Positions 1 through 23,957 of a DNA stretch of 42,110 nt are shown here, in pieces. The stretch comes from a virus (Duplodnaviria > Heunggongvirae > Uroviricota > Caudoviricetes): positions 1 to 42,110 of IMG/VR virus record IMGVR_UViG_2541047875_000007. One strand, given 5' to 3'. The stretch's first letter is position 1. The number at the start of each line of letters is the position of its first letter. Position numbers and translations under genes: made by a program. Below the pieces are notes generated by a model. It saw nothing but the letters and a program-made list of their open reading frames with translations, made no database searches and was not told the origin of the DNA.

Positions 1-1158
1 ATGCTCACCGTTAAGCAGATTGAAGCAGCAAAGCCGAAAGAAAAACCATACCGCCTACTCGATGGTAATGGCCTGTACCTTTATGTCCCTGTGTCAGGGA
101 AAAAGGTATGGCAGCTTCGCTACAAGATTGACGGTAAGGAGAAAATCCTGACCGTAGGAAAATATCCGCTTATGACTTTGCAGGAGGCAAGGGATAAAGC
201 ATGGACTGCGAGGAAAGACATCTCGGTTGGCATCGATCCGGTAAAAGCGAAAAAGGCTTCGTCTAACAACAATTCCTTTAGTGCGATTTACAAGGAATGG
301 TACGAGCACAAGAAGCAAGTCTGGTCAGTAGGCTATGCAACTGAACTTGCCAAAATGTTTGATGACGACATTTTACCCATCATCGGCGGTCTTGAGATTC
401 AGGATATTGAGCCGATGCAACTGCTGGAAGTAATCCGCAGATTTGAAGATCGCGGTGCAATGGAGCGAGCCAACAAAGCCCGCAGAAGATGCGGCGAGGT
501 TTTTCGTTACGCTATTGTCACCGGAAGGGCTAAATATAACCCGGCACCTGACCTTGCAGACGCCATGAAAGGATACCGCAAGAAGAACTTCCCGTTTCTT
601 CCAGCAGACCAGATCCCTGCATTCAACAAAGCACTGGCAACATTTTCAGGAAGCATCGTATCGCTCATTGCGACCAAAGTTTTACGCTACACAGCCCTAA
701 GAACGAAAGAGCTTCGTTCCATGCAATGGAAGAACGTCGATTTTGAAAACAGGATTATCACCATCGACGCCAGTGTGATGAAGGGGCGAAAAATTCATGT
801 GGTTCCTATGTCAGACCAGGTGATTGAACTTCTCACTACGCTAAGCTCAATCACTAAACCAGTGTCAGAGTTTGTTTTTGCCGGGCGCAACGATAAGAAG
901 AAGCCAATCTGCGAGAACGCGGTATTGCTTGTGATCAAACAAATTGGCTATGAAGGGCTGGAAAGCGGTCACGGATTCAGGCATGAATTCAGCACGATTA
1001 TGAACGAGCACGAATGGCCTGCTGATGCTATTGAAGTGCAACTGGCACATGCCAACGGCGGATCTGTGCGCGGTATTTACAACCATGCGCAATATCTCGA
1101 TAAGCGCAGGGAGATGATGCAGTGGTGGGCGGACTGGATTGATGAGAAGGTGGAGTGA
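1..1158 (+). CDS. int: Tyrosine integrase of the tRNA-associated P4/CP4-57-like family; ATG at window position 1
   Basis: 385-aa ORF; N-terminus MLTVKQIEAAKPKEKPYRLLDGNGLYLYV typical of the P4-type integrase arm-binding domain; C-terminal catalytic region with R...HxxR...Y pattern. Resembles the argW-associated prophage integrase (intS-like) from memory. Confidence 0.9.
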   Translation: MLTVKQIEAAKPKEKPYRLLDGNGLYLYVPVSGKKVWQLRYKIDGKEKILTVGKYPLMTLQEARDKAWTARKDISVGIDPVKAKKASSNNNSFSAIYKEWYEHKKQVWSVGYATELAKMFDDDILPIIGGLEIQDIEPMQLLEVIRRFEDRGAMERANKARRRCGEVFRYAIVTGRAKYNPAPDLADAMKGYRKKNFPFLPADQIPAFNKALATFSGSIVSLIATKVLRYTALRTKELRSMQWKNVDFENRIITIDASVMKGRKIHVVPMSDQVIELLTTLSSITKPVSEFVFAGRNDKKKPICENAVLLVIKQIGYEGLESGHGFRHEFSTIMNEHEWPADAIEVQLAHANGGSVRGIYNHAQYLDKRREMMQWWADWIDEKVE

Positions 1159-1182
1159 ACCACCTTAACCACTATCGAAGAG

Positions 1183-1216
1183 CACAAAGCCTTGCAATCC
1201 AGTGCAAAGCTTTGTG
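1183..1216. repeat. Nested inverted repeat (13-bp arms, one internal mismatch) 25 nt downstream of the int stop
   Basis: CACAAAGC-c-TTGCA / ATCCAG loop / TGCAA-a-GCTTTGTG read directly from the sequence. Confidence 0.5.
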
Positions 1217-1314
1217 TGTCTCAGTTTTGTTTCATAGGTAATCATGCGTTCACTACGATGCAAGAATCCATACCAAATTTTATTTAAAACTCACAAATAC
1301 ACTAGATAAAAACA

Positions 1315-1337
1315 ATCCCGCAGTTTTCATGCGGGAT
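1315..1337. terminator. Hairpin between the convergent int and tailspike genes; likely intrinsic terminator for the tailspike transcript, possibly bidirectional
   Basis: 8-bp stem ATCCCGCA/TGCGGGAT with 7-nt loop; on the minus strand it is followed by TGTTTTTAT. Confidence 0.5.
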
Positions 1338-1355
1338 ATACTGCATTTATTGCAA

Positions 1356-3839
1356 CTACATTGCCATTAATATAAACATAGCCAATTCGTCATAACGAAT
1401 TCCGTAGCGTCCACCTGCTTTTTTTACAAGAATCATATTTCCTGTTTTATATTGAGAATAAATTTTCTCACCTGTATCAGGATCTGTGCTCTCTTCAGTT
1501 ATCACCTCTTCATCCCATACGTCTGGCCATTCATCGTAACACCAAAAAGCATATTGCTCAGGATTTAAACCACGCTTTCTAAGAATATCTCCTACGGTTT
1601 GAGCGCCAACTCCAAAATGATACCTTGATAACTCCAATCCTTTAAAATTAATCGACTCATTAAACCTGAACTTGCATATAATTCCCTTTATTTCCAGCGC
1701 AGCATCACGCTCTGCCTGAGTAATGTCATATATTGTTTTAAGTGTTTCATCTGATGTGCTTATAGTCCCGGATGCAGAATAAATCTGAGCCCATCTAAAT
1801 GATGGTGCACCAAGAGATTTGCTGTTATCAATAATTGGTGAAAAATTACCTTTAATGGCAATATTTCCAGAGTCGCCGAATATATTAATAACTGTAGAGT
1901 CATCACCATGGTTTTTTACGCTTAAGTTTCTTGATGAAATATTTATATCTTTGTTATATCCACTAACATTAATCCATCTTTTACCATCAATGTGATACCC
2001 GTAAATATTTCCGTTTGATTGTTCGTCAGGTGACTCTCTAAGAACAATAGCATCTACTCCAGACGACCATTGTATTTTTGTATCTGTAGGCCTCCAGTTC
2101 TTTATAATGAACGAACCATCAGTAAACTCCGTTTTTATTTGTCTATTGTCTACAAATGCGTCTCTTGGTTTAAACTCACTTGTGTTAACGCTGCTCTGAA
2201 GATCAGAAGCAAAAAATCTAAGATTTCCTGTATAACCCTGAGTCTCGGTCAGGTTATACGCAATCATAATTCCATTTTCAAACTCAGATGATGTTATTTT
2301 AACATCACGGCAATCACCAAAAATGCAATTTCCTTTATCAAATGTTGTTTGAGCTTTGAATTTATCAAACCTTAAATTACGAACAGGGAAACCATCAACC
2401 TCTAATGCAAAGGATGCAGGAAGGCCAAAGTATTCTGATGGCTTACCTGATGTATGATCAAGAGTAGTGGCTACTGTATTCTCAAAAACAGTCCCGCTAA
2501 AATTATTACCAATTGACGGAAACCTGATTACACTTATTGTACCTTGTATTTCAGGAGAAATACCAGATAGTGTGATGTTAGTTCCATCAAATGATGCATC
2601 TGAATACGTATATACTGATTCACTGCCAGCAATTTTAAACTGTTTAACTGAAGTTATTCTCATCGACTTTTTATGTTTAAATGTCACTGAGCTTTCAGTA
2701 TTACTTACAAGATCAATCTGAGGGCTATTCCTTATCGCGATTCCTGACTGGACATAAACGTTATTAAAGTGCGTTTTTTCAGGATTTCCCTTCATTGAAA
2801 GGCTCCCGTCATTTTCTGTCAGTAGTAGTCCTTTTACCCTCCAATAGCCGACAATCTGTACGTTATCAATAACTGAATCACAGCTATCGTATACATGCAA
2901 CCCTATATCCCAGTTATCACCCAATGAATAAGAATCAGGGTTATTGTATCCTTCAATACCATTTTTACTTACCATTATTCTCAGATTGCGTAACTGTGAT
3001 GCCCTGTTGATACTAACAGCTACGCTCATGGCTTTTGGTGTAGCAGGAGTAACACCTACAGAATCTTCATTCGTAAACTCAGTGAACTTACAAGATATCC
3101 CTTCAACAATTTTAACCGGTCTTTCATTAGAGATGTTAAAAAAATATTTGTTTTTTTCTCCATCACCAGTAAATACAAGATGGGTTCCTTTACTCCAACT
3201 TTTTAATAATCTTTCAGGCGCTGGTCTATATGTATCCCAATAATCAATGCCAGATCCAACCAGTGAACACCCCTCAGGAATGTTAATATTCTTCTTGATG
3301 ATGCATATTCCTTCCGGAATTGTTATAACCGACCTTCCAGAGTTTAAAGCTTTAATAAAAGCATCTGAATCATCTGTTTCCCCATCTATTTTTGCTCCCC
3401 ACCCTCTAACATCTCCACAATCTCTCCATCGTGCCATCTGCAACTCAGGATATTTTTTAGCGCCATCTGGATCTTCTAATTGCTGCCGTAGCTGATCGGG
3501 GTCATACTTCAGCACATTGGGAAAATAAAACTGCTGCGCACCATACGCATCATAAACAGCCATAGAATGGCCTTGCACGGTAACGAATTTGGCAATCTGT
3601 CCGTTATATACCGGATATCCGGCAGCGTTAATGATGATTGGTTGCGAAACAGGAACGTGAGAGCCGTCTTCGTTCTCTACATAAACCTGAATCTGGTTTT
3701 CTGGATTTACCGGGTCAGTGTCAATTTTACCGATATAAATTTTGCCATTGGCATTTGCTTTAAACGAGCGAGCTAAAGTAAATAACTGACTTGGTTGTGA
3801 AACAACTACGTTGTATAATTGTTCTGGCATAATAAACAT
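1356..3839 (-). CDS. Tailspike protein: P22 gp9-type N-terminal head-binding domain, divergent central beta-helix receptor-binding domain, C-terminal intramolecular-chaperone (peptidase S74-like) domain
   Basis: 827-aa ORF. N-terminus [11 protein letters not shown]...[40 protein letters not shown]...[14 protein letters not shown] matches the P22/HK620/Sf6 tailspike head-binding domain. C-terminal region contains TSTSDETLK...[13 protein letters not shown]...[10 protein letters not shown] resembling the S74 chaperone motif. Confidence 0.9.
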
Positions 3840-3852
3840 TCCGGAGAAAATA

Positions 3853-4353
3853 ATGAGTAAGAGACGTCACGAGGTAGTAACTCGGGAGCGCCTTATGGAG
3901 GTTCTCGATTACAATAAAGAAACAGGAATTTTCACTTGGAAAAAGAAATTAAGCGCCAGAGGTGCTGTTGGGAAAGTTGCTGGCACAATTTCTTATGGAT
4001 ATAACGCAATTAATATTGATGGCGTAAGATATTTTGCACATAGACTTGCCTGGCTGTATGTATATGGCGAATGGCCCAAACAAGAGATTGACCACATTGA
4101 TAGAAACAGAAGAAATAACGCAATCTCAAACCTTAGGGATGTCAGCAGAGTCGTAAATGCATTAAATGTCGGACCTCGAAATAGCAATGCTGGAATCAAG
4201 GGGGTAACTTTCTGTCAAGCCAGAAATCAATGGCAAGCTCAGATAAATGTCTCAGGTAAAAACATAACCCTTGGGAGATTCAACACCATTGATGAAGCGG
4301 CTATAGCTTATAAGGCAGCAAACATGGTTGCTGACCATCTGTTGAGTAGGTAA
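3853..4353 (+). CDS. HNH endonuclease with C-terminal AP2-like DNA-binding domain (homing-endonuclease-like)
   Basis: ORF-track ORF 3811-4353 trimmed to ATG 3853 preceded by GGAG. Contains [13 protein letters not shown]...[18 protein letters not shown] (HNH) and GVTF...QWQAQI...[16 protein letters not shown] (AP2-like). Confidence 0.7.
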
Positions 4354-4420
4354 TGTCTGTCATTTAATTTGCTCCAGATACAAGGAATCGCCGCAGCATG
4401 GCTACGGTGAATTTTGGGCA

Positions 4421-4445
4421 TAAAAAAACCCAGCCGAAGCTGGGT
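4421..4445 (-). terminator. Intrinsic terminator downstream of ant (minus strand)
   Basis: Stem ACCCAGC/GCTGGGT with loop CGAA; followed on the minus strand by TTTTTTTAT. Confidence 0.55.
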
Positions 4446-4463
4446 CGTTGCGTTGGTTATCTG

Positions 4464-5366
4464 TCAGTAGTTATGTACTGAAGGAGGTAATTCTTTATTC
4501 TTAAGTCTCATCCATGCGGAAAGATTCGTTGGTCCGTCTGGCTCATTGATATCAACATCTCGTGTGTGATTGATTAAAACGTCTCTCGCCATTCCGATAA
4601 CATACGAGAACTCATGACCGTAGTCGTAGCATCTGCCTGAATAGTTCGATTGAATTTGTTTTAGCGCCGGATACAGTTCGCGGAATAATGCCTGTGAGCG
4701 GTTGGCATAATCCCATAACCATACAAGGCTGTTTGCTTCTTTTGCAGAAAGCTCGTTGGTTTTCTTCTCTTGTTTTCCGATGAACTCGCCTTCAAGCACT
4801 ACCCTGTGGATGTACTCTACTGCTTGCGGTATCTGAGATGAATCAAGCTCTTCAATACTTTCCACGTTGAAACGCTGATGAATCATTGCATAAGCTTCTG
4901 GGTACATTAGATGCTTTTTGCTGACTAGCATATTTACAGCATCACGAAGCGGAGTCCTGTCATCAACAGATGTTTTCTTACGTGCATTTTCTGCCTTTCC
5001 CTTCGTCCAGTAGTCATGCAGCACAGTAAAGCATTCTTCCTGGTACTGAATCAGTTTATCGCGAATGTCAGCACGAACTTTCTCAGGGTTGATGCTGAAC
5101 AGCCATCCATTTAACTTCTTCAAAGGAAGGCAGAGTAGCTTACGAAGCTTACCATCAGCGGCAACCATGTTCATATGAACACAGTTGAATTTGCTAATCT
5201 GCTTCATGAGTTTTGTTTGCTGCGTTGACCAGCTCATTCCAAGGTTTTCAACGATTGGCTTCATCGCAACATATGCAACTCCGGCAGTCATGGCGGTGAT
5301 AATCTGCTGACCATTGAAAGGTACGTAAGAGGTGTTCACTGCTTCTAAAATTGCTATACTATTCAT
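4464..5366 (-). CDS. ant: Antirepressor Ant (P22 immI)
   Basis: ORF-track 322-aa ORF begins at a TTG; the first ATG (5366, [10 protein letters not shown]...) gives 300 aa. Lies immediately downstream of arc as in P22 immI. Confidence 0.85.
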
Positions 5367-5434
5367 GTTGGTTTTTCTCCACGAATTTACTGACAACAGA
5401 AGCCCTGACTGTTCCCGCAGTTGGGGCTTCAACT

Positions 5435-5596
5435 TTACGCGCCAATACGCCCTTCCTTCTTAAAGCTGTCCATTACTCTCTGATAAATCTCAGAGTTAAC
5501 AGACCGACCATTCTCTTCCGCCACCTTGCGTACCAAATCCAATACTTCTTTAGGCCACCGCAAATTGAACTGCGGCATTTTGCTCATTCCTTTCAT
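5435..5596 (-). CDS. arc: Arc repressor
   Basis: 53-aa product [53 protein letters not shown], near-identical to P22 Arc from memory; GAGGTGA before the ATG. Confidence 0.9.
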
Positions 5597-5610
5597 GTTC
5601 ACCTCACAAT

Positions 5611-5660
5611 ATAGGTCCACGGTGGACCTATTGAGAATATAGTAGAGTGCTTCTATCATG
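5611..5660. promoter_or_regulatory. immI operator region: Mnt operator palindrome (5611-5631) and Arc operator (5640-5660) between the divergent arc/ant and mnt promoters
   Basis: ATAGGTCCACGGTGGACCTAT perfect palindrome; TAGTAGAGTGCTTCTATCAT with inverted TAGA half-sites; both match remembered P22 Omnt and Oarc. Confidence 0.7.
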
Positions 5661-5686
5661 TCAATACACTAACTTGGAGTGATGGC

Positions 5687-5941
5687 ATGGCTAGAGATGA
5701 TCCGCACTTTAACTTCCGCATGCCTTTGGAAGTAAGAGAAAAATTAAAATACAGAGCAGAGTCAAATGGTAGATCAATGAACTCAGAATTGTTGCAAATC
5801 GTCCAAGATGCTCTATCGAGACCATCTCCTGTAAAAGGTTATCGCAATGAAGCTGAACGATTAGCCGAGATGCAGGCTGAACAGTTCAAGTCTGTGGTAT
5901 TTGAGACACTTAAAAACATGTATGGCAAGGATGCAAAATGA
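5687..5941 (+). CDS. mnt: Mnt repressor (maintenance of lysogeny)
   Basis: 84-aa product MARDDPHFNFRMPLEVREKLKYRAESNGRSMNSELLQIVQDAL, Arc/MetJ-like ribbon-helix-helix N-terminus as in P22 Mnt; GGAG 7 nt upstream. Confidence 0.9.
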   Translation: MARDDPHFNFRMPLEVREKLKYRAESNGRSMNSELLQIVQDALSRPSPVKGYRNEAERLAEMQAEQFKSVVFETLKNMYGKDAK

Positions 5942-6519
5942 TCGATTACAACCCAGCAAAAAAAGAAATCATCGCAGCTAAAAAGTGCCTAGAGCAGATG
6001 AAATCATCTACAAACCATGATGATTTTGAAATGCACTGGCGAGAATGTCTTGGGCATATAGAAAAGTCTTTCAGTAAGTTGCTCTGTGCAACAAAGCCGG
6101 TTAGTGGAAAATTTAGCAGCCACTTCAACCAAAAGTTCATGCTTAGAAAAACAGACAAAACACTTGCTTACCTTCACCAAGCAAGAAATGCTGATCATCA
6201 TTCCACTATGGAAATCTCAAAACTTGAACCTCCTTATACTACTCTTGGGGCATTTCCTGGAGCAAGAAGCCATTATATTAAAGAGTTAATCATTGATTCA
6301 ACAGGGAAAATAGCAAAATACGAAGGCGACCCTATGATAGTTGAGTTTCATCCAGCAACAACTATGCCTATAACCGTAAGAAACCAAGGCAAAGATTATC
6401 CACCTCCAACAGAACATCTTGGCGAAAAGCTTGTTGATATACATCCATCTGTTCTTGCCCATCTCGGTATACAATTTTATGAAAAATGGATAGATGAGTC
6501 GTGTGCAACGTTTAGATAG
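5938..6519 (+). CDS. Hypothetical protein (193 aa), translationally coupled to mnt
   Basis: ATG overlaps the mnt stop (ATGA); AAGGA 6 nt upstream; no family recognised. Confidence 0.7.
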   Translation: MIDYNPAKKEIIAAKKCLEQMKSSTNHDDFEMHWRECLGHIEKSFSKLLCATKPVSGKFSSHFNQKFMLRKTDKTLAYLHQARNADHHSTMEISKLEPPYTTLGAFPGARSHYIKELIIDSTGKIAKYEGDPMIVEFHPATTMPITVRNQGKDYPPPTEHLGEKLVDIHPSVLAHLGIQFYEKWIDESCATFR

Positions 6520-6748
6520 TTATTTTTGATAATTTCAAGTATTTCCTCTTGACTTTGATTTACCCAAACGTGATCACACTCATGAAACCAGATTATGCTT
6601 CCTGTTTCGCCTTGTGCAATATAGGTGATCATGTTTTCATTAACAATTATTACTGAGTTATCATGTGCGTAATTTAGTTTTATCAATTCGCATATCCTAT
6701 CGTGACAAAGTAACTAGAAAAACTAAAGAGGTTGGTGTGTCTGATTCT

Positions 6749-7231
6749 ATGAGTTACGCTGTGCTAGTTGCCGCAACTCTATTTATGGGGATAGGGTTGC
6801 AGATTGCGTGGTTCTTTTTTTCTAGTTTTATTAAACGCAAAAGAATTGAATCAAGGATATCTGAGATTTCTATTGCCATAGGGAAAAATGCTGAAAATCC
6901 AGAGAATGAGACCTGCGCACTTAATTACCTTAAAGAAAAGTTTTCCCCTGAAAAATTTGAAAATAGAATTACTGATGCTCTTGGATTGGTAATATCAGTA
7001 ATTCATATGCCACTAAGTTTGCTGATAACAGTGTGGTACTTCGCCATGATCGCCGGAAGAATATTTGGTTTCATGAATATAGAGCCTGTAGTTCTTTGGG
7101 TTCCAATGATACTGCAACTGTTGTTAAGCGTTGCTATCTTTATTTTTTCTGTTTTTATAAAAATTGTCTTTGGAAGATACCCCGGAGAAGCTAAGGGATT
7201 TAATAAAGAATTCATAAAAACTATAAAATAA
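6749..7231 (+). CDS. Multi-pass membrane protein at the position of P22 sieA (possible superinfection exclusion); start uncertain
   Basis: Several hydrophobic segments ([58 protein letters not shown]). Alternative GTG start at 6737 has a better-spaced AAGAGG than ATG 6749. Confidence 0.55.
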
Positions 7232-7253
7232 ATGCCGTCCTTGGCTTACAGTG

Positions 7254-9095
7254 CTACTGCCGTGTCGCTTCGTTAGCTAAGAGCGGGCGCACGGCAGTAG
7301 CAGCCTGATTTAGCGCTCTTTCATAAGCTGGCGTTCCAGCTTTAGTGTTTGCCAGACGTAAGAGCGCATTCCTTGCTGCTTTGGACTCATACAAACGCAT
7401 CATTGCACCAAAACCAGCCTCAATCCCCATTGATACTCCAAGAGTCGCAGTTGCGCCAATCGTCCTTATCCTGTTGGCTTGTGATTGCCCCGTCTGAGTT
7501 ACTACATTTGCGGTGTCTGACCTTGCTGTTTGCTGTAGAACTTCATGAAGAGCATCGAGCTCTTTCATGTGCTTTCCAGAAAAAATAGTGTTGTAAATTT
7601 CACCGCCTGACTGAGATTTAAGCTTATTAACTTCAGTGATGAACTTGGCTGGAGAGTCACCGGCCTTTTCCGCTATTTTGCTGACGTAAGCTGCACGCAT
7701 AGCATCTTTCCCTTTATCATCCAATGCGCTCCAGATTCGTTTCACGTCAGATGGTTTTCTGCTTAATACAACGGTATTTATAAGTTCAGGACTGGCTTCA
7801 CTGCTTGCCTTGTTGAGCTTGTTGGCAATGTTTTTATTAAGCACCTTATTATAAACGTTTGCATAATCGGAATTTGCTTTAAGGTATTTTGCTGCGTCTG
7901 ATGCACCGAGGTTTTTAGCAACTGCGTTACGAAGGTCTTTTGACATTGCATTCTCTACCATATTGGTAGCTGCTTTTGCCTGGTTGGGGAAGACCATAGC
8001 ATCTCCCTGAACATTAGATCTAAATGCTGTTCTGTGCTGACGCAAGAGATCAAACGTAACATCCAAATCAGTTGCAGGGTTTGCTAATTCTTCGCGTAGG
8101 TTACGCAAGGATGTAAGCAGGCTTTGATTGGCAGACGTCCCAAGCCGTTCCTGTCTTGCGATCGCTGTATTCAGAGCATTCATAGTGTTTGTGGTATCAA
8201 CTGCGGCATTCCCCATTTTATTGGTGACGTCATTGATAACAGCGCCAGCGGCATCCTTCCGTCCCCTTAACGTGGTGGTCAGAGATTTCACCACATCATC
8301 CGGGTTGTACTCACCAAAACGGTCAAAATAATTACTTACCAACTTACTACGCGTTGCATATTGCTCCGCTCGCTTTGAGCCTGTCCCGAGCAAAGCCCCC
8401 TCGGCATCCTGAGTAAGGCCGCGAGTGAAAGCATTTTTCGGCGGGATAACATCAGATGTCATTGGTGTCACGCCAATCGATTCTGATGTGGCAATTTTCT
8501 TCGCCACTTCTGGCGCAATATCACCTTTTATAGCCGTTATTCCACGCCCTATTCCCTTTGCTGCTGCGGAAAGAACCCCCTGAGCGGCAAGGTTAACTCC
8601 GGCATTTTTAGCTGCATTTTGTGCGAAATCGCCTTTCTGATTTGCGGCCTCTGCCAGTGATCCAATAGCCATGCTTCCTGCCGTTCCAACTCCTGGAACT
8701 AAATACCCACCAATTGTTTCACCGGCTTGTGCGTATGGGTCTGTCGGTCTGTCTACTGGACGATAAACATCATCCAAAACCTTGGGTCCACCAAGCCCAT
8801 GACTGATTGCATTAATCAGACTTGCGCCGCCCTGCAATACGTCAAATGGTATGTTTACCAGACCACGACCAGCCTGCTCTGCAATTTGCCCTGCACTTTG
8901 ACCACCTGTGAGCCAATCGCCAGCTTGTTGCATCAATGATGGTTCTTCACGTGCTGGTTCATTATTGGCCTGATTAACTGTTTGTTGCTGAACAGCCTGA
9001 CCAGCAAAATACTCATCAATGGCGGTGCCAATATCTTCCGTGCTCGTACCATCAGGGAAGGTAAATGTCTTACCGTTTGCAGTTACTTTCATCAT
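7254..9095 (-). CDS. Ejection (DNA-transfer) protein gp16
   Basis: 613-aa ORF in the conserved P22 order gp7-gp20-gp16; start overlaps the gp20 stop. Confidence 0.85.
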
Positions 9096-10567
9096 TCCAC
9101 CGTAAATTGAATGCCTGATTTTGAGGTATATGATCCGGATTGACTCTGCTGCTGTTGGGTATTTGTCGGTTGTTGGCTATTGCTCTGTTGTTGACTATTT
9201 GCAGCACTTGAAACCACCAAAGCATCATAAACGCGACCAGACTGACCACGTAATGAGTTATATTGGCCCTGCATTTTTCGCATTTTTGTTTCAGTAGCAG
9301 CCTTGGAATCACCGGGCTGAGGCAGGTACATTTTGGAATACTCCTGCATCTCTGGCAGAGTAATTGCTGCACCTGTTTCTGGGCGCAAAATTGCATACAA
9401 GGCGTCTCTCGCATTTACCATATATTGCTGCTCCGCTGGTGATAGGCTTAAATTTGCAATAGTCCCATCACCAAGAGAGCGATTTATTAATGCAACTCGC
9501 TTAGGGTCAATGCTTTTACTAAGCTGATTCATTGAGTCCATTGAATCTTTTAATCGCAAAGCAAATCCTGCCGCCTTCTTGGAACCCTCATTAGCCTTAT
9601 CTATGATGCTTTGCGCTTGTGGCAAGCTAATTGGTTTAATGCCATCACCAGATATAGGTTGGTTTAGTTTTCCGGCTTCCTCGCTGCCATCGGTGTAATA
9701 CTTAGTTACCGAGCCATCAGGATTGGTTTCAACCTTAAGTAATTTCTTAGCATTGGGATTAATTCCCGCCGCTGCCGCAAATGCCGCTGCACCATCTGGA
9801 TCCGCCTTTAACATTTGCGCGTACTGATTGTAATTCTGCATTGCGGCTGTTGGTGCATATGCTGACGTTAACGCATTTGCTCGGCTAATATCCTGCCCTC
9901 TCGCCTGAAGTGCTTCGCTGGCCTGATTGCTGCGGATTGTCTCTGCCAGTCTGCCTCGGTCAATCTCACGACCAGCTATCTTGTCCTGAACAGCAAACGC
10001 CTTTTCTGGCCCAAGCGCACCGAGAGACATAGTAGTCAGCATGTGTGATAACTGCTCTGGATTCTGGATACCTGTCTGAATCATCCAGTCAGCATTCGCA
10101 CCAACGCGATTTAACCTGTCCTTGTTGTCAGTAATGAATTTACTGTAGGCTTCCGGTCCCTGAGAAAGAGCGACGTTAGCCCTCATGGCTAAATCGCCCA
10201 TATCGTTACGTTGCTGATCATTAAGACCGGAAAACGCCTGTTGTGCCTGTGCAACAAACGCTGGATTTTCCTGGGCAAACTTAAATAGTCCCGATGGATC
10301 ACCAGAAGCCCATGCATCAGCGTGAACCTTATTGAACGCACTAATCGCTTTCTGTTGCTGTTCCTGATTGTAAATATCAGCAACTCCAGCCAGACCACGT
10401 AACGCGGTCAGACCAACGTTATTTGCACCTGAGCGAGCCAACTCATTGTTTTCGCGGATCAGACCAAGCGTTGCGTTAATGTCGCTTGCTTTTGGCGCAT
10501 TCTCATTTTGCGCACCAATGCCAGCCAGAAAACCACCAGAATTAATACCCTGTTGCCACGTAGCCAT
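9092..10567 (-). CDS. Ejection protein gp20
   Basis: 491-aa ORF, size and position match P22 gp20. Confidence 0.85.
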
Positions 10568-10577
10568 TGATTACCCC

Positions 10578-11270
10578 TTAAAACAGTGAACCAAGAAGAC
10601 CAAGACCGCCGCCAACAGCGGCACCAATACCAGTACCAATACCGGGAACAATGCTGCCAAGCTGTGCTCCAGCAATTGCTCCAGAGGCAGCCCCGCCTAT
10701 TGCAGATTGAAGGCCGGAAGGTCTATTAGCGTTTGCCGCCGCCAGTGCCGCGCTTTGCTGTGAAATCTGGCTCATGTTGTTGGCATATGTTTGCCCGGCG
10801 TTTGCCTGCCCCTGAAGAGCGCCAAGACCAATATTTGCCAGATTCTGGTAGTTGTTCATCTGGCCAGACAGCCACTGCTGACCAAGCGTTGGTGCGATTG
10901 TTGCTAACTGATTACTGGTTGCGGTGGAACCTAATCCACCTGTTGCTTCCGCTGCCGCCAGACTCTGATAGCGCGCCTGACCAGCAAGGTCTTTGTACTG
11001 CTGAGAGTTGTAATACTGGTTAAGCGCCTGACCTTGCCCCTCCAGAGACGATAAGTTCTCGAGGCTGCCGACATACTTCTCAGCCAGAGGAGTAAACGGT
11101 TTCAGGTTGTTCATGATGGTGTTGAACTGCTGATTTTGCAGGTCTGCGGAATACTTCTGGGCTTCTGCTGCATACTTTGCGCTTTTATCGGCTCCACCTT
11201 TCCCGCCTTTTTCAGGGCAATAAGGTTCCTCGCCGCGCAGTTTTCTGCCCAGCTTAAATGCATATAACAT
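10578..11270 (-). CDS. Ejection protein gp7
   Basis: 230-aa ORF with Gly/Ala-rich hydrophobic C-terminus; size and position match P22 gp7. Confidence 0.85.
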   Translation of the reverse strand: MLYAFKLGRKLRGEEPYCPEKGGKGGADKSAKYAAEAQKYSADLQNQQFNTIMNNLKPFTPLAEKYVGSLENLSSLEGQGQALNQYYNSQQYKDLAGQARYQSLAAAEATGGLGSTATSNQLATIAPTLGQQWLSGQMNNYQNLANIGLGALQGQANAGQTYANNMSQISQQSAALAAANANRPSGLQSAIGGAASGAIAGAQLGSIVPGIGTGIGAAVGGGLGLLGSLF

Positions 11271-11272
11271 GG

Positions 11273-11731
11273 CTATCTCCCGTGATTCAGGAAGTCGATT
11301 AGTTCTTCGCGTGTGGCGCTGTAAAACGTCACGTCATCCACGCCTTTAAAGTATTTCTTGATGGTTCCGACACGCTTAAGGCCAATCATTGCGCAGTAAA
11401 TCTGCCCGTGGCGGAATTTGCGTGCGGCGAACGATGTGACGCACTGAACGGTGGTGTTAGTCAGAATGTATCGCCAGAACGCCAGCCCGATTTCCTTGCT
11501 GAATCCACGAATCTCTGGCAGGTACATGGCGTGGCAATCAAAGGTCAGCGGCTGAATCTCCTGATAGTAAACAATTCCGCCGAACTGCCCGTGCACGTTC
11601 ACCTCAAAGTAACGGCATTCAGGCTTGTAGTCGTATCCATCGCCGTTGTTGCTCCCGGCGATAATGTCAGGGTGATTTCCTACTGCTTCGATCAGGTCGA
11701 TGTTTCGCGTTGGTTTGAAATGAATCATCAC
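11273..11731 (-). CDS. Head assembly / DNA stabilisation protein gp14
   Basis: 152-aa ORF between tail needle and gp7, as in P22/Sf6. Confidence 0.75.
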
Positions 11732-12681
11732 TGCTCCGCGATTATCTTGATGGTTGTGGCAGTAAACGCCGCACCATTCGACTGAATGGTTAACGTGCTG
11801 CCATTTGTGGCAAGAAAGCCGTCTTTATCCACACTGAAGAACGTAGCTAACAGGATGTTATCGGTCGTTGTCGCCGAGTTGCGACTGCTTACCAGTGTGT
11901 CAGGAACAGAGCCGGAAAAGGTTAGCTGCATTGACCTGTTTGCGGTTCCGCTGGGCCACGTCCCGACAATCGACAGCTTGAAGAACAGGGTTTTGTTCTC
12001 GTTGAAAACAACCATCTTGTTGTTATCAGTATCGAAGAATGGTGCCAACGTCCCGGATGACGGCGTGAGCGTTTTCAGCAGGCTAACAAGGTTGGTCGGC
12101 GCTGTTGGAATGGTTACCGATACTCCTGAGTAAACAACCTCTGATTTCTTGCGCGTGGTGGCATACTCAAGCGCAGATATTCTTGTTGAGTGATCACCAA
12201 CTGTGCTTTGTAGCGTCGAAATACTTCCCTCTGCCGCTGTGAGCCTGGTATCAAGTGCGTTGATATCGGTTGTATTCTGAGTTATTCGCGCATCATGGTT
12301 TGCTAACTCAGATTCATTGGCAGCAATTCGCGTCTCGTGATCAGCCAGCTCTGTTTCGGCAGCCGTAATCCTTGTTTCATGATCTGCAAGAGTGCTTTCC
12401 GCTGCTGCGATTCTATGTTCATGATTGACGAGAGTTGCTTCAGCAGCAGCAATTCTGGATTCATGGTCTGCAAGGGTGACATCCTGCTCATCATTCTTCA
12501 CCTGTGCATCATAAGCCCCCTTCCCTGCTTCGTTGGCCTTGTTAGCCACGTTACCAACATCAGCACCCTGTGCGATAACGTACAGCAGATATGACTGCGA
12601 GAAGATATTGCGTGGAAGGACTGATGTGTCGAGTCGTGTAGCCTGAATGATTACCGGCTCATTGAGATTCGAATCAGCCAT
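11728..12681 (-). CDS. Tail needle protein (gp26-like) with coiled-coil repeats and an extended C-terminal domain
   Basis: N-terminus [43 protein letters not shown] matches the P22 gp26 N-terminus; repeated ADHE(S/T)RIAAAE heptad-like units; 317 aa versus about 233 in P22. Confidence 0.85.
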
Positions 12682-14099
12682 TACTCGATCCTTATCTGGC
12701 AGCCTGACAGAGTGACAGGTGACTTAGTGATAACACGCAATTTGAAGCCGACATTTTTCCTGATGCGCCCAACTCGCTTCCACAAAACGCGTTTGTCGTA
12801 AACGAACGGTTCATTCTGCTCAATCATCTGCTCACGCCCGTAATTGATACCGTCAGTGGTTGCAGAGAGAAAAAGGCGGTCAGCATACTGCGCAACGCCA
12901 GTTGACGATTCAACCTCAAGGTCGAACACTCTGGCGTTATCCGCTTTGAACAGTGGAGTAAACAGCAGGTGTTCCTGTTGCTTGTCGTACTGGCTGCTGA
13001 TATCGAACTGCAGTTTCCCGGTAACAGATTCCAGCTTATCGCCGCACGTTATCTGATTGCCTTCGTAAATGAAGTCGATAGCGCGGTACACATCGTCATA
13101 CAAGCCAGTTTTCAACACACACCATTGCGTACCATTGGCGCTTGAAGATGCGTCGTACACGAGAACATGGCGCGCAAGATGGATAATCAGCAACTCATGC
13201 GCATCAAATCGCAGAGACTCCATCACGCCATCAGCCAGTTCATCAGCAGTGTAGGAGCGTAGTATTTTCTCAATGCTCGCGCTGGCGATTGGTGATACCT
13301 GACCAGAGCCGATGATATACACAGACGGCGCACCTGTTGCCGGATTGCTGATGAACGCATACGAATCAGCGAACTGCGTTTTGCAGTAGGTTCCAGCGAT
13401 ACCTTTCTGCACCATTAACGATGGCTGGGCGACATACAAAGCAGCACCAACGGTGGTTGCACCCGTCAGGGAGAAATATTCAATCGTCGATGAACCAAAG
13501 CAGACGATAAAGTCTCGCCATGTACCTATGCCGATGATGCCGTCAGGCTGCGATTCTGCACGATATTGTGCGCTGTAGCGGTCAGGGTGCGATTCGTCTT
13601 CAAGGTCAGTGATAAACCATGAATCAGTACCGTCTTTTGACCACGCATAACGCCCACGTAAGCGCGTAATGTCGCGAACTGAACCTAACTCATACTGCGT
13701 AAAACCGCTGTCTGTAGGCCAGTTTGATACGGTTTTAACCGTGCCATCATAGCGATACTCGACCAGTTGACCATTAACGCCTACAGCCTGAGATGTTCGA
13801 CCATGCGCCATTGATACGCGACCACTTCCGGCGACGTCACCGACTTCACTTTCGCCTTTGTACAGCTTGCCACCACACACGCGATAAACGGCACTCTGCG
13901 CCATGTTGTACTCGACGCCGCGCGATACGCCGTTCACATCAGAACGTTTGGCAATTCCCGGGAATGAGCGAAGATATCCGCTGCTGTTCAGGATTTCTTT
14001 GGGTGTAGCCAGCATATTCACTGGCAGATAGTCGATATAGTCGGCATTTCGGAAGTCTTTGCCGACGCCTTTCATGAGCGGAAGTTGCTGAATCGGCAT
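12681..14099 (-). CDS. Tail accessory protein gp10
   Basis: 472-aa ORF, same length and position as P22 gp10. Confidence 0.85.
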
Positions 14100-14108
14100 T
14101 TATTCACC

Positions 14109-14570
14109 TCACGTACTCGGATCATCTTTCTCGATGTAAAACCGATTCCACGTATACGCGCTTTTGTTACCACTACCGCGAGGCATGTCATTTCGCCGCT
14201 CAAGTGGTGGTATTTTGGTTAAAGCGATGCAGATTGTCTGATATGCGCTGTCAGCAGCGGTAAGGAGAGCATCCGACGGCTGAATGACGTTATCCATGCA
14301 CACTTGCACAGCGAGTTTCAAAGCGACGCCATCATTTGCCCATGCAGGGATACCTGAATCATCGTCAGGTAACGGCATGATGCCGTTTTCTGTATCAGCA
14401 AACTGATATCCAAGCTCGATACCTTTCGCCTGCCATGCTGCCATCATGTCTTCGAGGTCATTAATGGCATCTTCAATTGCCTGAGGGTCGGCATCTGTCA
14501 ACGTGGCATTGGAATACAGCCCGGCTTTTCGTAAAGCCTTTAGAACGAGATCACCCTTCGTTTTCGCCAT
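14109..14570 (-). CDS. Tail accessory / head completion protein gp4
   Basis: 153-aa ORF following coat, as in P22. Confidence 0.8.
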   Translation of the reverse strand: MAKTKGDLVLKALRKAGLYSNATLTDADPQAIEDAINDLEDMMAAWQAKGIELGYQFADTENGIMPLPDDDSGIPAWANDGVALKLAVQVCMDNVIQPSDALLTAADSAYQTICIALTKIPPLERRNDMPRGSGNKSAYTWNRFYIEKDDPST

Positions 14571-14739
14571 CTTCTTCCGCCTTAGCCACTTTTTGCTTCG
14601 TTGCGGTTTCTTCAGGAGTTTTTACCCAACCTTTTTTCAGGTGAGATTTAACTTCTTCGTCATCAACAATGATGTAATCGACAGCAAACTGACCACAGGT
14701 GATCATGTTGCCCGGCTTATAGAGCATTGTTCGTGCCAT
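14551..14739 (-). CDS. Small hypothetical protein (62 aa) between coat and gp4
   Basis: ORF-track ORF trimmed to ATG 14739 with GGGAGAAG upstream; overlaps the gp4 start by 20 nt. Confidence 0.45.
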   Translation of the reverse strand: MARTMLYKPGNMITCGQFAVDYIIVDDEEVKSHLKKGWVKTPEETATKQKVAKAEEDGENEG

Positions 14740-14780
14740 TGTCTTCTCCCAATAAAAATGGGGCCGAAGCCCCACCAAAA

Positions 14781-16034
14781 TTACTGCCCGGCAATAACGA
14801 TGCCCGTATATTCAGGAACAAGTACAGAGCAGCCGTACAGAGTGGTGAAACGCGCAGTGGTTACGCCTTTGATGTGGTCGAAGGCGTAAGACATAATCAG
14901 CGTAGCGCCCTGCTCGGTGGTTGCCGTCATTACCTGTGGACCCTGACCAGTCGGGAACGCCAGTTTGCCGTACATCAGTTCAACAGAACCATCAGCCCAG
15001 AACAGGTTAGCCGGTGCGGCATTTTTGTTGAGAATGGTGATTGCTGCGCTACTTGCCGCATTAGCATCAACGTTTGCATATGGACGGCTGGCGACATCCG
15101 CGTTGTCAGGCGGCAGAATTTTCGGGGAGATAGTTACTGTCGTTCCGCTAACTGCCAGAACGCGGAATACCTGCGGCTGCCCGGTGGTATCTTTGGTGAT
15201 CTGGTGTACGGAATTCACCCCTGCGATGGTAAACGCATCGCCAACCTGCAAACCTTCAGCAGATACCGTAATGGTCCCCTGTCGGTTATCCACTGGCATT
15301 TCGTTAGCATCTTTCGCTTCAACCTTGTGCGCAGGTGCTGCTGCCAGCGTAATGGAAGTTGCTGTACCCTTCGGAACACGACCAGAAATATCGGTCTTGT
15401 AGCTATCGAAGGACGCAACCGGAGGGATCTGCGCTTTTTCGTATGCTGTCAGGGTTGCGCCCTGAGCATAGGCACGGTGACCAAGCTCGCCAGCAAGGTC
15501 TTTGTAGTTGAAGGGGTTCCAGAAAGAGCGGCGGTTGATACCCTGTGGTACACCAATCGCCGTCATGGTGGCATCAATACCTGCCGCACAGTTCCACAAA
15601 TCACGGCCCTGTGAACCAGTGGTTGAGTCAGCCATTGTGATCACGTTAGTAGCACGCTGCGTGACCATGGAAATCAGGTCAGAGTCAATCTGTGCAGCAA
15701 GGCGCATACCTGCGGCGCGACCAGCTTCAGTTTTATGTTCCGGGTCACGCATTTCACGCGCATCCAGAGTGTACAGAATGTTTTTCGGCTCCTTGAACAC
15801 AGAAGGAACAAGGCGCTGAACCAGTGCTGTTGGCGTTTTGCCGCTGAGGTCTAGGCCTTCCTCAATGTTCATGTGGTAATGCTGCGGACGATACAGAACA
15901 TCACCTGCTCGCTGCATTGCTGTATCACCGGGACGGAATTTTTTAGCGTTACGGGAAACTACGCAGGCGGCCTCAAAGCCTTCAACGTAGTTTTCGAACA
16001 TGATTTCAAGGTCTTTTGCTAATTGGTTAGCCAT
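14781..16034 (-). CDS. Major capsid (coat) protein
   Basis: 417-aa ORF; C-terminal similarity to P22 coat (FWADGS..., ...GQ terminus); position after scaffold. Confidence 0.9.
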   Translation of the reverse strand: MANQLAKDLEIMFENYVEGFEAACVVSRNAKKFRPGDTAMQRAGDVLYRPQHYHMNIEEGLDLSGKTPTALVQRLVPSVFKEPKNILYTLDAREMRDPEHKTEAGRAAGMRLAAQIDSDLISMVTQRATNVITMADSTTGSQGRDLWNCAAGIDATMTAIGVPQGINRRSFWNPFNYKDLAGELGHRAYAQGATLTAYEKAQIPPVASFDSYKTDISGRVPKGTATSITLAAAPAHKVEAKDANEMPVDNRQGTITVSAEGLQVGDAFTIAGVNSVHQITKDTTGQPQVFRVLAVSGTTVTISPKILPPDNADVASRPYANVDANAASSAAITILNKNAAPANLFWADGSVELMYGKLAFPTGQGPQVMTATTEQGATLIMSYAFDHIKGVTTARFTTLYGCSVLVPEYTGIVIAGQ

Positions 16035-16052
16035 GTTTAATGCTCCGATAGG

Positions 16053-16946
16053 TTATTTTTTTGCCTTTTTAGCGGCGAAATACGGCGTCCAGTCACCAGT
16101 TTCCAGCGCCTTGGCTTTCAATTTGCCGAGGTTGTTGATTACTGCGCCGTTGCTCCCCTTAACTGTCGGGGTTGTGGCTGCCGTGGTTTTTGCTTTTGGC
16201 ATGACTCTGGCCTTCGATTCGATACGTTCCAGCAGACGACCAATTGCTACGGGGTTGGTAGCTTCTGCCAGTTGCTTGCGCAGTTCAGCGTTGCGACCGA
16301 GCGCCAGAACAACGATTTCCGGCTTCTCTGACTCAAACAGGATCGCGTTTTGTGTCTCGATGGGGATTTCCTCGAGTACGGCCTGTTCTGCTTCCTGATA
16401 GCCAGGAACTTTGAGAGCCTTAACACGTTGCTGATATTTGGATAATCGCTCTTGATAGGCAGCCTGAAGCTCCTGCTCCTTCTGCTTGCGAGCCATCTCC
16501 TGTTGCTGGTACTTGCCGTTATCCTCTGCCCACTTAGCCATGCGTTGCTGGTAGATTTCTTCATCGAAACCGATGTCCTCATCATCCAGTTTTGGCATTC
16601 GCGGTGGTTGAGTTATTACCGGCTGCTGCTCGACGGGTTTCTGAGACTGACGCATCAGCTCTTTCAGCTCGCGGTCTTTCTCTTTAATCGTCTTGCGCAG
16701 GTGTTTTACCAGTCCATGCTCTGCGCCATCTTCGCTGGTTGGCGAATCCAGCTTTTCGTCACCAAAGTAGAATTCCTGTTCTGATTCGTCGTCATCAGTT
16801 TCAGTAGCTTCCTCTGCATCATTGCCGGAGGACTCACTGCCATCTTCTGTTTCGACTTCTTCAGCCAGTTCGACATCATCAGGAATCTGCTCTGACGCGT
16901 CGGTTTCGATTTCAACTTCTGGTGTGTTTTCTGCCATCTGGTCCAT
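16053..16946 (-). CDS. Scaffolding protein
   Basis: 297-aa highly charged E/K/Q-rich helical protein between portal and coat. Confidence 0.85.
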   Translation of the reverse strand: MDQMAENTPEVEIETDASEQIPDDVELAEEVETEDGSESSGNDAEEATETDDDESEQEFYFGDEKLDSPTSEDGAEHGLVKHLRKTIKEKDRELKELMRQSQKPVEQQPVITQPPRMPKLDDEDIGFDEEIYQQRMAKWAEDNGKYQQQEMARKQKEQELQAAYQERLSKYQQRVKALKVPGYQEAEQAVLEEIPIETQNAILFESEKPEIVVLALGRNAELRKQLAEATNPVAIGRLLERIESKARVMPKAKTTAATTPTVKGSNGAVINNLGKLKAKALETGDWTPYFAAKKAKK

Positions 16947-17036
16947 TTGTTACCCCTGTTTACTCGATGTTCAGCCCATCGGAAGGCAATAGGGTGCCAG
17001 GCCTCATAAAGACAGCCATTGCACGTTATGGGTTAA

Positions 17037-19235
17037 TTACTGCTGTGGTTGTTGCTGAGTTGATTTTTGCAGGATGCTGCTGATGTCCATGCGCTGCGCA
17101 TGACCCTGTGCCTGACTTTTCAGGACAAGCTCTGCATCAGCACGGGCATTGTCTCCTTGCTGTTGCTGGAACTGTCCGAGCAGTTTCAGAGCCTCGCGGA
17201 TATCAGATTTCTGCTGGCTATCGGCAGATGCGAGGATTTTCACAACATTTGCCGCTGCAACCTGAGCATCAGTCTGTGCCTGGAATGCTTTAACCTGAAT
17301 GGCTGCCTGTTCGTTCTGCGCTTTCTGCAATTCAGCCTGACCAGCAAGAAGCTGACCTTGCGCAGCAACCATAGCCGGATCTGGCTGACTGGCCTGTTGT
17401 TGTTTCGCCTGCTCAACCATCTGCTGTTCTTCTGGCGTTCTCGGCTTGATAACTCCAGACAGAAGCAACTGATTGCGGTTGTATTCTTTCAGGTCGTCCA
17501 TCCCTTCTCCGTCCATATTGTCGAGAATCATCGACGATACAAGGTCGTGCTTCGGCGTCCCTGGCGGGATAAGTGCCAGCATGGAAAGTAACGACTTAAC
17601 CGTTGCATCACGGCGAGTAGCGAACGACTGACCGACATCGACAGTCACTTCGTAGTTACCCTGCGAAAGGTCGTTAAGCGCGATAACCTGCCCTGTCTGA
17701 CGGTCAACCACTTCACCAGTCATCAGCGCCACGTCATCGCTGCCGTCCTCATTAACGATACGCATCGGCGTATCGCTGCCATAGACTTCACGCGCCATAG
17801 AAAGCCACACAACGCCAGCGCGACGCATAGATTTAGCCATGTTGTCCATGTAGATATAGGACTGCGTGTCCATCCGGTTAAAGATGCTATCAACGGTATC
17901 GGTGGCGACGTTGCTCGGCATGTTCTCAAGCTGCGACGCACCTGTAATTTGCTGAATAGCCGTTCCGGTGTACTGCAATAGCCCGGCAAGAGCTGGAGGC
18001 ATTTGTGTCGGAGGCGTATAACTGCTGACCTGAGCCTGCGCAGTAATATCTCCGTTTTTGTTTTTCAAACTGACCATCGGCAGGAACGCCGGGCGCTTTT
18101 TGTTGCGCTCCGCCCAATGAGTGGCAAGAGGACCAGGAATCATGTCAACATCAACTACAGGAATGCCATCACCGCCAGCCTGAGTAGCGTTATCTGCAAT
18201 CATGGAAACCATCAGGTTCTCAAGACGCTGTGCATCCATCGCTTTTGCTGCGTGGCCTTCGATTCGCTCCTGATTATCAACAAATGAACGACGCCCATAT
18301 ACCGGGATGAGAGGAATATGTTCGCCCGGAATACGCTTCGGTTCTTCCAGCCATTCAGCGCCAGACAGAAGACCGCAATAAACTCGGCGTTTCTTCACCG
18401 TTCGCTCGCCAATCAGTTCGAATGCACCATCGGTCAGCTCGTCGACAATATCTTTGATTTGCTCTTCATCATAGATTGCCGTTTCTCCGCTGACAGGGTT
18501 ACGCCATGCTGTGAGCTTCACCTTCTCTATGCGAACTTCGTAGTAGCGACCAACATAGATAGCATCAGGAGTTGACCAGTCATATTGAGTGCCAGTGTCA
18601 TCACGAGAAAGGCTTGCCGCGATGGAATCAGGGTATTCAGCCTCGAACGCTTTAGGCGTCATGGAGAACATTTCCATAGCCCACATAGCATCAGAGCGGT
18701 CATATTGCTTGCTGTCCTGATCGAAGAAGACGCATGTCGCTGGGTCGTAAACAGGAAGAAGGCTGATGCGTCGCTGCTCGTTACTCGGATCCATTTCATC
18801 TTCGTAATCGGCACACATGCGGAAACAACCGAATCCGCCCGTTACAGCATCATCAAATGCGTTATCACACGCTTCGCCACCGGATGTTTCCTGATAGTCA
18901 GCGCGGAATTTGCCGTTCATCTTTTCGGCTAACGCTTCCGATGCCTTGTCATCCTTCGGCCTGAATTTAACGCTGATGCGATTCTGTCGATACTCGCCAA
19001 TGATGCGATCACATTCACGGGCAATCTTATTCAGCTCAAAGCGCGGGTAATGCTCAAACCTGCCTTCATCAAATGAGTAACCAGCGTTTGTGCTGCCTTC
19101 CCACTGTGCGCCGGACACCCGGACGAAACGTTGAGCTTCAATAATCTGCTCACGCATATCCTGCGTTGCTGACCAGGCATTATCAAAGTTGCACAGCACC
19201 TTGCGATGCCAGTCAGTCATCTTTTTTTCTGCCAT
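17037..19235 (-). CDS. Portal protein
   Basis: 732-aa ORF downstream of the large terminase with a Q-rich C-terminal barrel-like tail; P22 portal is about 725 aa. Confidence 0.9.
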   Translation of the reverse strand: MAEKKMTDWHRKVLCNFDNAWSATQDMREQIIEAQRFVRVSGAQWEGSTNAGYSFDEGRFEHYPRFELNKIARECDRIIGEYRQNRISVKFRPKDDKASEALAEKMNGKFRADYQETSGGEACDNAFDDAVTGGFGCFRMCADYEDEMDPSNEQRRISLLPVYDPATCVFFDQDSKQYDRSDAMWAMEMFSMTPKAFEAEYPDSIAASLSRDDTGTQYDWSTPDAIYVGRYYEVRIEKVKLTAWRNPVSGETAIYDEEQIKDIVDELTDGAFELIGERTVKKRRVYCGLLSGAEWLEEPKRIPGEHIPLIPVYGRRSFVDNQERIEGHAAKAMDAQRLENLMVSMIADNATQAGGDGIPVVDVDMIPGPLATHWAERNKKRPAFLPMVSLKNKNGDITAQAQVSSYTPPTQMPPALAGLLQYTGTAIQQITGASQLENMPSNVATDTVDSIFNRMDTQSYIYMDNMAKSMRRAGVVWLSMAREVYGSDTPMRIVNEDGSDDVALMTGEVVDRQTGQVIALNDLSQGNYEVTVDVGQSFATRRDATVKSLLSMLALIPPGTPKHDLVSSMILDNMDGEGMDDLKEYNRNQLLLSGVIKPRTPEEQQMVEQAKQQQASQPDPAMVAAQGQLLAGQAELQKAQNEQAAIQVKAFQAQTDAQVAAANVVKILASADSQQKSDIREALKLLGQFQQQQGDNARADAELVLKSQAQGHAQRMDISSILQKSTQQQPQQ

Positions 19236-19236
19236 A

Positions 19237-20652: not shown

Positions 20653-21074
20653 TTTCCGAATAGAGTGCTCATCGGTGATGTTTCAATCTGGATTGCGCCG
20701 CCGTCCTTACCGACAAGCTCGTTAGTTACCTTGTCGCCATACTTACGGGGATTCATTCGGGCCAGCGCCCATTTGCGGGTATCAACGCGAAGTCTTGCCT
20801 TTGCCACCTCAGCAGCATCTGGAATCGCAGTGTCAGCAATTTCGAATATCTCTTCGAAAATAGAATCAGCTCGTGCCTCAGTTGCCTTCGCGTACTTGTC
20901 TCTAAATTCTTCATGCTCTGACAGCCAGCGAAATACAGTAGCCTTTGCTGGCATGCCGGGGCGCTTGCAAACCTTAACCAGACTTTCCCCGGAGGCAAGC
21001 AGCGCACAGATATCATCAGCCACCTCCGGCAGGTAATCCGAAGGGCGACCGACATTCTTTTTCTCAGTCGCCAT
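20649..21074 (-). CDS. Terminase small subunit (Sf6 gp1-like)
   Basis: 141 aa, MATEKKNVGRPSDYLPEVADDICALLASGESLVKVCKRPGMP... closely matches the remembered Sf6 small terminase. Confidence 0.9.
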   Translation of the reverse strand: MATEKKNVGRPSDYLPEVADDICALLASGESLVKVCKRPGMPAKATVFRWLSEHEEFRDKYAKATEARADSIFEEIFEIADTAIPDAAEVAKARLRVDTRKWALARMNPRKYGDKVTNELVGKDGGAIQIETSPMSTLFGK

Positions 21075-21153
21075 ATTGATTATTTCCCTTCTGCTTGCTT
21101 ATCCCATTCATCGCGGAATTTGGATGGGTTGTCGAAACCTTGAGTTGCCATGT

Positions 21154-21396
21154 TTATGCTCCGGTAGTGAACAGGTCTAACGCTTCCTTCGATTTACGCA
21201 CCGCTTCGATAGTGCGGGTCGTGATATCTGAATTAGCGCCACCTGACTGGAAGTGAATTTTGAATAGCTCAAGCTTCAGTTCGTCAGTACCAATGAACTG
21301 AAATGCTTCTTCTGCGGCTGCGTTCTGGTTCATGACCAGCTTGTAAATCTCTAACTGGAATTTCTGTTCTTCAGTCATGGGAATAATCTCTGCCAT
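21154..21396 (-). CDS. Hypothetical protein (80 aa) upstream of the terminase genes
   Basis: ATG with GGAG 7 nt upstream. Confidence 0.55.
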   Translation of the reverse strand: MAEIIPMTEEQKFQLEIYKLVMNQNAAAEEAFQFIGTDELKLELFKIHFQSGGANSDITTRTIEAVRKSKEALDLFTTGA

Positions 21397-22353: not shown

Positions 22354-22385
22354 TCATTAAATGGACTTTGTGATTTGCAAAAAAA

Positions 22386-23932: not shown

Positions 23933-23957
23933 ATTTAACGAGTGCATTTATCCATCG

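Follow-up and report, generated by a model that had tools for sequence, protein, structure and literature searches.

Late transcription in lambdoid phages is Q-antiterminated, and bidirectional intrinsic terminators between convergent genes are known, for example from full-length RNA profiling in E. coli. The closest described counterpart of the locus analysed here is found in phage HK620 (AF335538), where a feature spanning the record origin (38289..23) is annotated as 'terminator for prophage excision transcript' and reads ACAAAACCTTGCAATCCAGTGCAAAGCTTTGT. It lies 27 nt past the stop codon of int. Another HK620 feature, 'terminator of late transcription; tR'' after gene 9, is placed past the tailspike gene, and an O-antigen modification gene (36788-38014) sits between the excision-transcript terminator and the tailspike. 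The role of this slot as a site of gtr cassettes in P22-like phages has been described for epsilon-34 (PMC2629481). Its content varies: gtrA-gtrB-gtrS follow intS in K-12 CPS-53, whereas Sf101 carries oacB, HK620 its O-antigen modification gene and JEP4 a small ORF. In lambda, the sib/tI hairpin is distal to int and overlaps a terminator, with attP located between int and the hairpin. The intS promoter is dedicated, autoregulated and overlaps attL (Panis et al. 2010, PMC2951348). The hairpin downstream of intS fell outside the scope of both that study, which concerned the promoter, and the epsilon-34 paper, which concerned gtr cassettes.

The window, i.e. the whole 42,110-nt stretch of DNA that we analysed, opens with the ATG of a 385-aa integrase gene, whose product contains Phage_integrase, Phage_int_M and Arm-DNA-bind_3 domains (Pfam). 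An identical gene in E. coli Combat2C1 is annotated 'prophage integrase IntS' and adjoins tRNA-Arg. Identical DNA is present in the Combat2C1 chromosome, in the order yfdC, tRNA-Arg (argW), intS, tailspike. The tailspike gene converges on int from the other side; it is recognized by Pfam as Head_binding (2e-64) and annotated in RefSeq as 'phage tailspike protein', with the start there placed at 3830 and a product of 824/827 aa. The stop codons occupy 1156-1158 (int) and 1358-1356 (tailspike, TAG on the minus strand), leaving a spacer of 197 nt (1159-1355) between the converging genes. Since the only copy of the 16-nt att core (CTGCAGGGGACACCAT in HK620) in the window is at 40409-40424, and given the gene order in Combat2C1, the window is a P22-like (Lederbergvirus-type) prophage at argW plus ~1.7 kb of host DNA at the right end. 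This copy of the core marks the prophage end, and attL is situated immediately before position 1, outside the int-tailspike spacer; in relatives, too, the att core is upstream of int. We also considered an attP core or a tRNA fragment within the spacer and ruled this out, as the window is without a tRNA and the att core corresponds to the 3' end of argW. The attR core itself reads CTGCAGGGGACACCAG and departs at a single position from the attP core of HK620 and from the end of argW. A minus-strand ORF at 40863-42110 resembles a host membrane-transporter gene.

We read the spacer as the place where two converging transcription units meet, each bringing a terminator-type hairpin at its 3' end, and put the probability of this reading at about 0.6. 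The hairpin past int (HP1), the hairpin past the tailspike gene (HP2) and the associated features are collected in Table 1. The original prediction had placed two separate structured elements in the spacer, one shortly beyond each of the converging stop codons. Our coordinates agree with this placement, and folding and repeat analysis recover both elements beyond chance. With both strands folded as RNA, HP1 and HP2 are both stable, and both are conserved in related prophages.

Table 1 Coordinates of the features at the int-tailspike junction, numbered from the first base of the window
Feature	Position	Strand	Basis
intS-type tyrosine integrase gene (upstream gene, 3' end precedes HP1)	1..1158	+	ORF list; Pfam
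HP1, 34-nt palindrome, int-module hairpin	1183..1216	.	folding, repeat analysis, HK620 match
CAAAGCYTTG near-palindrome, 2 copies of 10 nt each (direct repeat D1)	1185-1194, 1205-1214	.	repeat analysis
T-rich tail of HP1 (TGTCTCAGTTTTGTTTCAT), end of the conserved int module	1217..1235	+	similarity end-points
T-tract TGTTTTTATC directly 3' of HP2	1305..1314	-	terminator scan, sequence
HP2, probable tailspike/late-transcript terminator	1315..1337	-	folding, terminator scan, conservation
Tailspike gene, N-terminal P22-type head-binding domain	1356..3839	-	ORF list, Pfam, RefSeq

HP1 has the form CACAAAGCCTTGCA-ATCCAG-TGCAAAGCTTTGTG, in which two 14-nt arms, 93% complementary, enclose a 6-nt loop; it begins at the 25th nt past the int stop, i.e. 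after 24 nt. The single mismatch is C.A on the plus strand and U.G on the minus strand, which makes the minus-strand stem perfect. HP1 forms 13-14 pairs, with folding energies of -15.9 kcal/mol (plus strand) and -19.7 kcal/mol (minus strand) and corresponding z-scores of -5.0 and -6.0, and none of the 200 shuffles folds as well. Scanning the window for hairpins with 14-bp arms, at most one mismatch and a loop of 3-8 returned HP1 as the sole hairpin of its class in the 42 kb, compared with an average of 0.07 in dinucleotide shuffles. The palindrome is nested because each arm holds one copy of the near-palindrome CAAAGCYTTG, the two copies being 20 nt apart. The sequences bordering HP1 on its two sides are ACAAA and TTTGTG, and its stem can be extended to AGAGCACAAAGC...GCTTTGTGTGTCT (1179-1221, ~17 bp) at -19.2 kcal/mol. 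Aligned to window positions 1184-1215, the 32-nt HK620 terminator differs by one substitution, and it occupies the same place, behind an int with a 98%-identical C-terminus. HP1 is therefore the element already annotated in HK620, where the annotation is a prediction rather than a mapped 3' end. The two loci differ in what follows, as the window passes directly to the tailspike cassette while HK620 has its O-antigen modification gene in between. A scan of the spacer for promoters found none. A known structured RNA was ruled out, the best Rfam 15 scores in 1000-1500 being 9-18 bits against thresholds of 37-99.

HP2 reads ATCCCGCA-GTTTTCA-TGCGGGAT, a perfect 8-bp stem with five G-C pairs and a 7-nt loop, situated 18 nt past the tailspike stop. 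Its folding energy is about -12 kcal/mol (-11.8; z-scores -4.4 and -5.0). As a class, hairpins with a perfect 8-bp stem are not rare (13 in the window versus 4.6 expected), and HP2 is meaningful because it is placed directly after a stop codon with a T-run. The terminator scan found it on the minus strand, with a tail of at least 5 T in 8. Its nT is 3.2-3.8 and its d-score about 0 to +0.8, at the threshold, compared with +7.5 to +28.5 for the controls. Taking a stem-loop to be a stem of 5-14 bp with a loop of 3-8 nt, HP2 shows the anatomy of a standard intrinsic terminator: a G+C-rich stem-loop, a U-tract, and both placement and conservation after the last gene. Together with the tailspike 3' end (424 nt) it occurs in 35 complete E. 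coli genomes out of 5,426, and the matches fall into three bands of identity. Each of the five diverged versions of this 3' end that we fetched retains HP2 and its T-rich tail; among them are an argW prophage (94%), two bioA-ybhB (att-lambda) prophages (92%) and the tail-fibre gene of a phage of another type (88% identity). One of these contexts is a different phage in which lysis genes come next. In the predicted folds, the loop ranges from 4 to 10 nt across versions, and the most distant version carries one compensatory change of a stem pair, from T-A to C-G. The late terminator annotated in HK620 is placed like HP2, past the tailspike gene, but has another sequence and belongs to another tailspike allele. 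We read HP2 as part of the tailspike cassette, and each tailspike allele brings its own terminator. Structure, placement and conservation together argue strongly that HP2 is the canonical intrinsic terminator of the tailspike/late transcript. Counting against this are the d-score, which just reaches the threshold, and Q-antitermination, under which HP2 may stop late transcription only in part.

The ~390-nt tailspike 3' end is found, 88% identical, in genes annotated as 'tail fiber domain-containing' in another phage type (L151). The C-terminus of the protein (1359-1700) gives a weak, sub-threshold Pfam match to an endosialidase tailspike domain (E=6e-4). The sequence comparisons suggest that the tailspike C-terminus is an exchangeable module.

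HP1 departs from the standard anatomy that HP2 shares. Its stem-loop is stable, though the stem is A/U-rich, and it lies after a stop codon and is conserved with int; its U-tract is poor, with no U-rich tract directly 3' of the stem on either strand, and it stays below threshold. The terminator scan did not call it. The tails of the full stem, TGTCTCAG on the plus strand and CTCTTCGA on the minus strand, contain an interrupted T-tract, and an inner stem would be followed by TTTGTGTG or TTTGTGCT but would reach merely -5.6 or -9.4 kcal/mol. Scores of the d'Aubenton-Carafa type are negative in both directions (-19 to -52), in sharp contrast to those of three control terminators (+7.5 to +28.5). 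Like bidirectional terminators, HP1 is symmetric, has A-rich 5' and T-rich 3' flanks and lies between convergent genes; unlike them, it has its A/T tracts within the long stem, where they are short and interrupted. In gtr-carrying relatives, the genes flanking HP1 are co-directional rather than convergent.

We further examined variation of the stem and the neighbourhood of related integrases. Across 49 distinct variants of HP1, 85.9% of cells are paired and no covariation rises above shuffles, a comparison with little power given the close kinship of the variants. The minus strand pairs better in 30 of the 49, mostly through one inherited C.A / U.G position, so this preference is no independent evidence. 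Past the stop codons of distant IntS homologues, the hairpins in the following 85 nt have a median of -10.7 kcal/mol versus -9.6 inside the gene, which is not significant (p=0.06), while textbook terminators follow a few of these homologues (L100, L104, L107, L133). Neither intS nor yfdG appears in the supplementary tables of 3'-end mapping in E. coli K-12 (PMC7815308); expression of intS is poor (PMC2951348). Given its own promoter at attL, intS also needs its own 3' end. We infer with moderate confidence that HP1, a widely distributed element of weak terminator type, acts as a terminator or bidirectional barrier.

The distribution of HP1 is indeed broad. The int 3' end with HP1 and ~20 nt beyond it is present at 2,973 places in 2,360 of 5,426 complete E. 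coli genomes and is matched in 167 phage records, and HP1 is present in 66 of the 96 loci fetched for an IntS of 80% identity or more, one Citrobacter locus included. When 104 related loci are compared with the window, similarity mostly breaks off at 1227-1235 (37 loci) or at the 3' edge of the stem (1212-1223). Phage matches also stop at ~1230-1235, with unrelated modules beyond. Judged from these end-points, the main mosaic junction lies at ~1228-1235, at the boundary of the int module. Since the junctions fall just 3' of HP1, HP1 behaves as the end of that module. Where the spacer between converging int and tailspike genes is 63-114 nt (L046, L047, L051, L033, L081, L086), HP1 is the lone stable hairpin, and in L013-type loci an unrelated hairpin with a 10-bp stem occupies the same offset.

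HP1 can also be damaged, lost or separated from its gene. Its stem is weakened in several variants, and at least nine loci that keep an intact int have had HP1 removed. Seven loci (L035, L048, L054, L058, L063, L073, L082) read CACAAAGCCTTGTGTGTCTC, i.e. one copy of CAAAGCYTTG with the loop gone; the CAAAGCYTTG copies thus appear to mediate clean deletion of HP1 in a recurrent set of related prophages. Conversely, an int 3' fragment with HP1 is found without a complete int in Stx-converting phages, in 434 and mEp234-type phages and in att-lambda prophages. Such intS remnants lie at 1946-2074 in L007 (Stx2 phage 1717) and at ~2297-2500 in L149 and L150 (att-lambda), with unrelated modules adjoining. 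In the two att-lambda prophages, the remnant with HP1 sits directly beside the tailspike terminator region of the window, which indicates that the whole spacer can move with the tailspike cassette.

Under the reading we prefer, HP2 and its T-tract would form the Rho-independent terminator for the tailspike gene, with which the late operon ends, and HP1 would be the 3'-end hairpin of the intS transcript. HP1 would most likely be bidirectional: for int it would weakly terminate transcription or stabilise the 3' end, and from the other side it would form a second barrier against late transcription running antisense into int. The analysis establishes the structures with their positions, conservation and module membership, and the single-base difference between HP1 and the HK620 element; that transcription actually stops at them is an inference, a strong one in the case of HP2 and a moderate one in that of HP1.

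The main rival, which we regard as unlikely, holds that HP1 is an inherited scar that hitch-hikes with the intS 3' end by recombination and has little or no present function. A scar would suit the poor terminator scores, the lack of covariation, the degraded stem of several variants and the clean loss from at least nine loci with an intact int, as well as the survival of the int 3' fragment with HP1, but without a complete int, in Stx-converting and 434/mEp234-type phages and in att-lambda prophages. It sits badly with the near-intact state of HP1 in most of the ~3,000 E. coli genome places and with the many short spacers where HP1 is the sole hairpin between converging genes; the non-homologous hairpin at its offset in L013-type loci further suggests that a hairpin is wanted there. 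Distinctly less probable is a role for HP1 as a regulatory hairpin of IntS-type integrases, be it a sib-like RNase III/mRNA-stability element or a bidirectional insulator. In the insulator version, the perfect minus-strand stem would stop Q-antiterminated late transcription from silencing int by antisense. If a regulatory reading were true, the carriage of HP1 in thousands of E. coli prophages would reflect selection for this function.

The sib-like mechanism taken by itself, as a retroregulator of the lambda kind, we consider very improbable. Transcripts ending at the hairpin would be stable, while read-through would form the ~17-bp stem, be cut by RNase III and destabilise int mRNA. The extendable stem is compatible with this, and, judging from the HK620 gene order, early transcripts running leftward on the circular phage genome would pass through attP into int. 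The HP1 stem is shorter than typical RNase III substrates. In lambda, moreover, attP separates int from sib/tI, whereas here attP is upstream of int, as seen from tRNA-Arg/attL before int, the upstream attP core of HK620 and the attR core at 40409-40424. Integration therefore cannot separate HP1 from int, and the key feature of sib is absent. HP1 is distal to int, as is sib/tI in lambda (PMC2951348). Panis et al. give other means of intS control, namely autorepression and TorI (PMC2951348). We give least credence to the idea that HP1 acts as DNA, either as a protein-binding site (two CAAAGCYTTG copies spaced 20 bp, or two helical turns, apart) or as a recombination hotspot promoting module exchange. 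Mosaic junctions do cluster at and just after HP1, yet any end of a gene or module would be expected to show this. The near-palindromic arms with copies 20 nt apart, the conservation of sequence beyond pairing alone, including most loop positions, and the deletions arising between the two copies would agree with action at the DNA level, but no protein is known or predicted to bind HP1. The repeats annotated in HK620 as att arm-type do not look like these copies and are found inside int or upstream of it, and the replacement of HP1 by an unrelated hairpin favours structure over sequence. We thus retain the reading of two converging units with a terminator-type hairpin each. The junction is an ordinary one and essentially known, and its value lies mainly in annotation, in that it defines where the int unit and the late unit have their 3' ends and puts the int-module boundary at ~1228-1235.

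The original prediction had further held that the 197-nt spacer leaves no room for the gtr or oac genes of related phages. This proved correct: CPS-53, Sf101 and HK620 carry such genes, while the spacer has no ORF longer than 32 aa, and tblastn with GtrA, GtrB, GtrS, Sf101 OacB and the HK620 O-modification protein gave no match in the whole window. Host O-antigen modification via the usual gtr/oac genes is therefore not expected from this prophage. The absence of gtr and oac represents an empty cargo slot, a state common in the group. Among 86 sampled IntS loci, the spacer measures at most 250 nt in ~29 (about a third), gtrA/gtrB are present in ~20, an oac-like gene in ~8 and other inserts of 1-2 kb in ~14; 28 complete genomes carry the 197-nt spacer in full. 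A short spacer free of conversion genes is thus among the commonest arrangements in this prophage group. The frequency of empty slots, HP1 as the sole hairpin of short spacers and the allele-specific terminators are comparative data that may be of use for annotating P22-like prophages.

Two minor observations concern the surroundings. Downstream of HP1, gtr-carrying relatives and HK620 have CATCAACCACAGCAAGTCATCGATCGATTGAGACTTGGATGATAGAC in common, with GATC sites (~3060-3150 in L003; 2998-2930 on the minus strand in L004), and the window retains just the first ~20 nt of this region, to 1235. We take the region to resemble the Dam/OxyR phase-variation region of P22 gtr operons. At the other end of the tailspike gene, between its start and an antirepressor-like gene (4464-5432, minus strand), an ORF on the plus strand (3811-4353) encodes HNH_3 and AP2 domains and is homing-endonuclease-like; RefSeq annotates it as 'HNH endonuclease signature motif containing protein', and its frame overlaps the first tailspike codons on the opposite strand.
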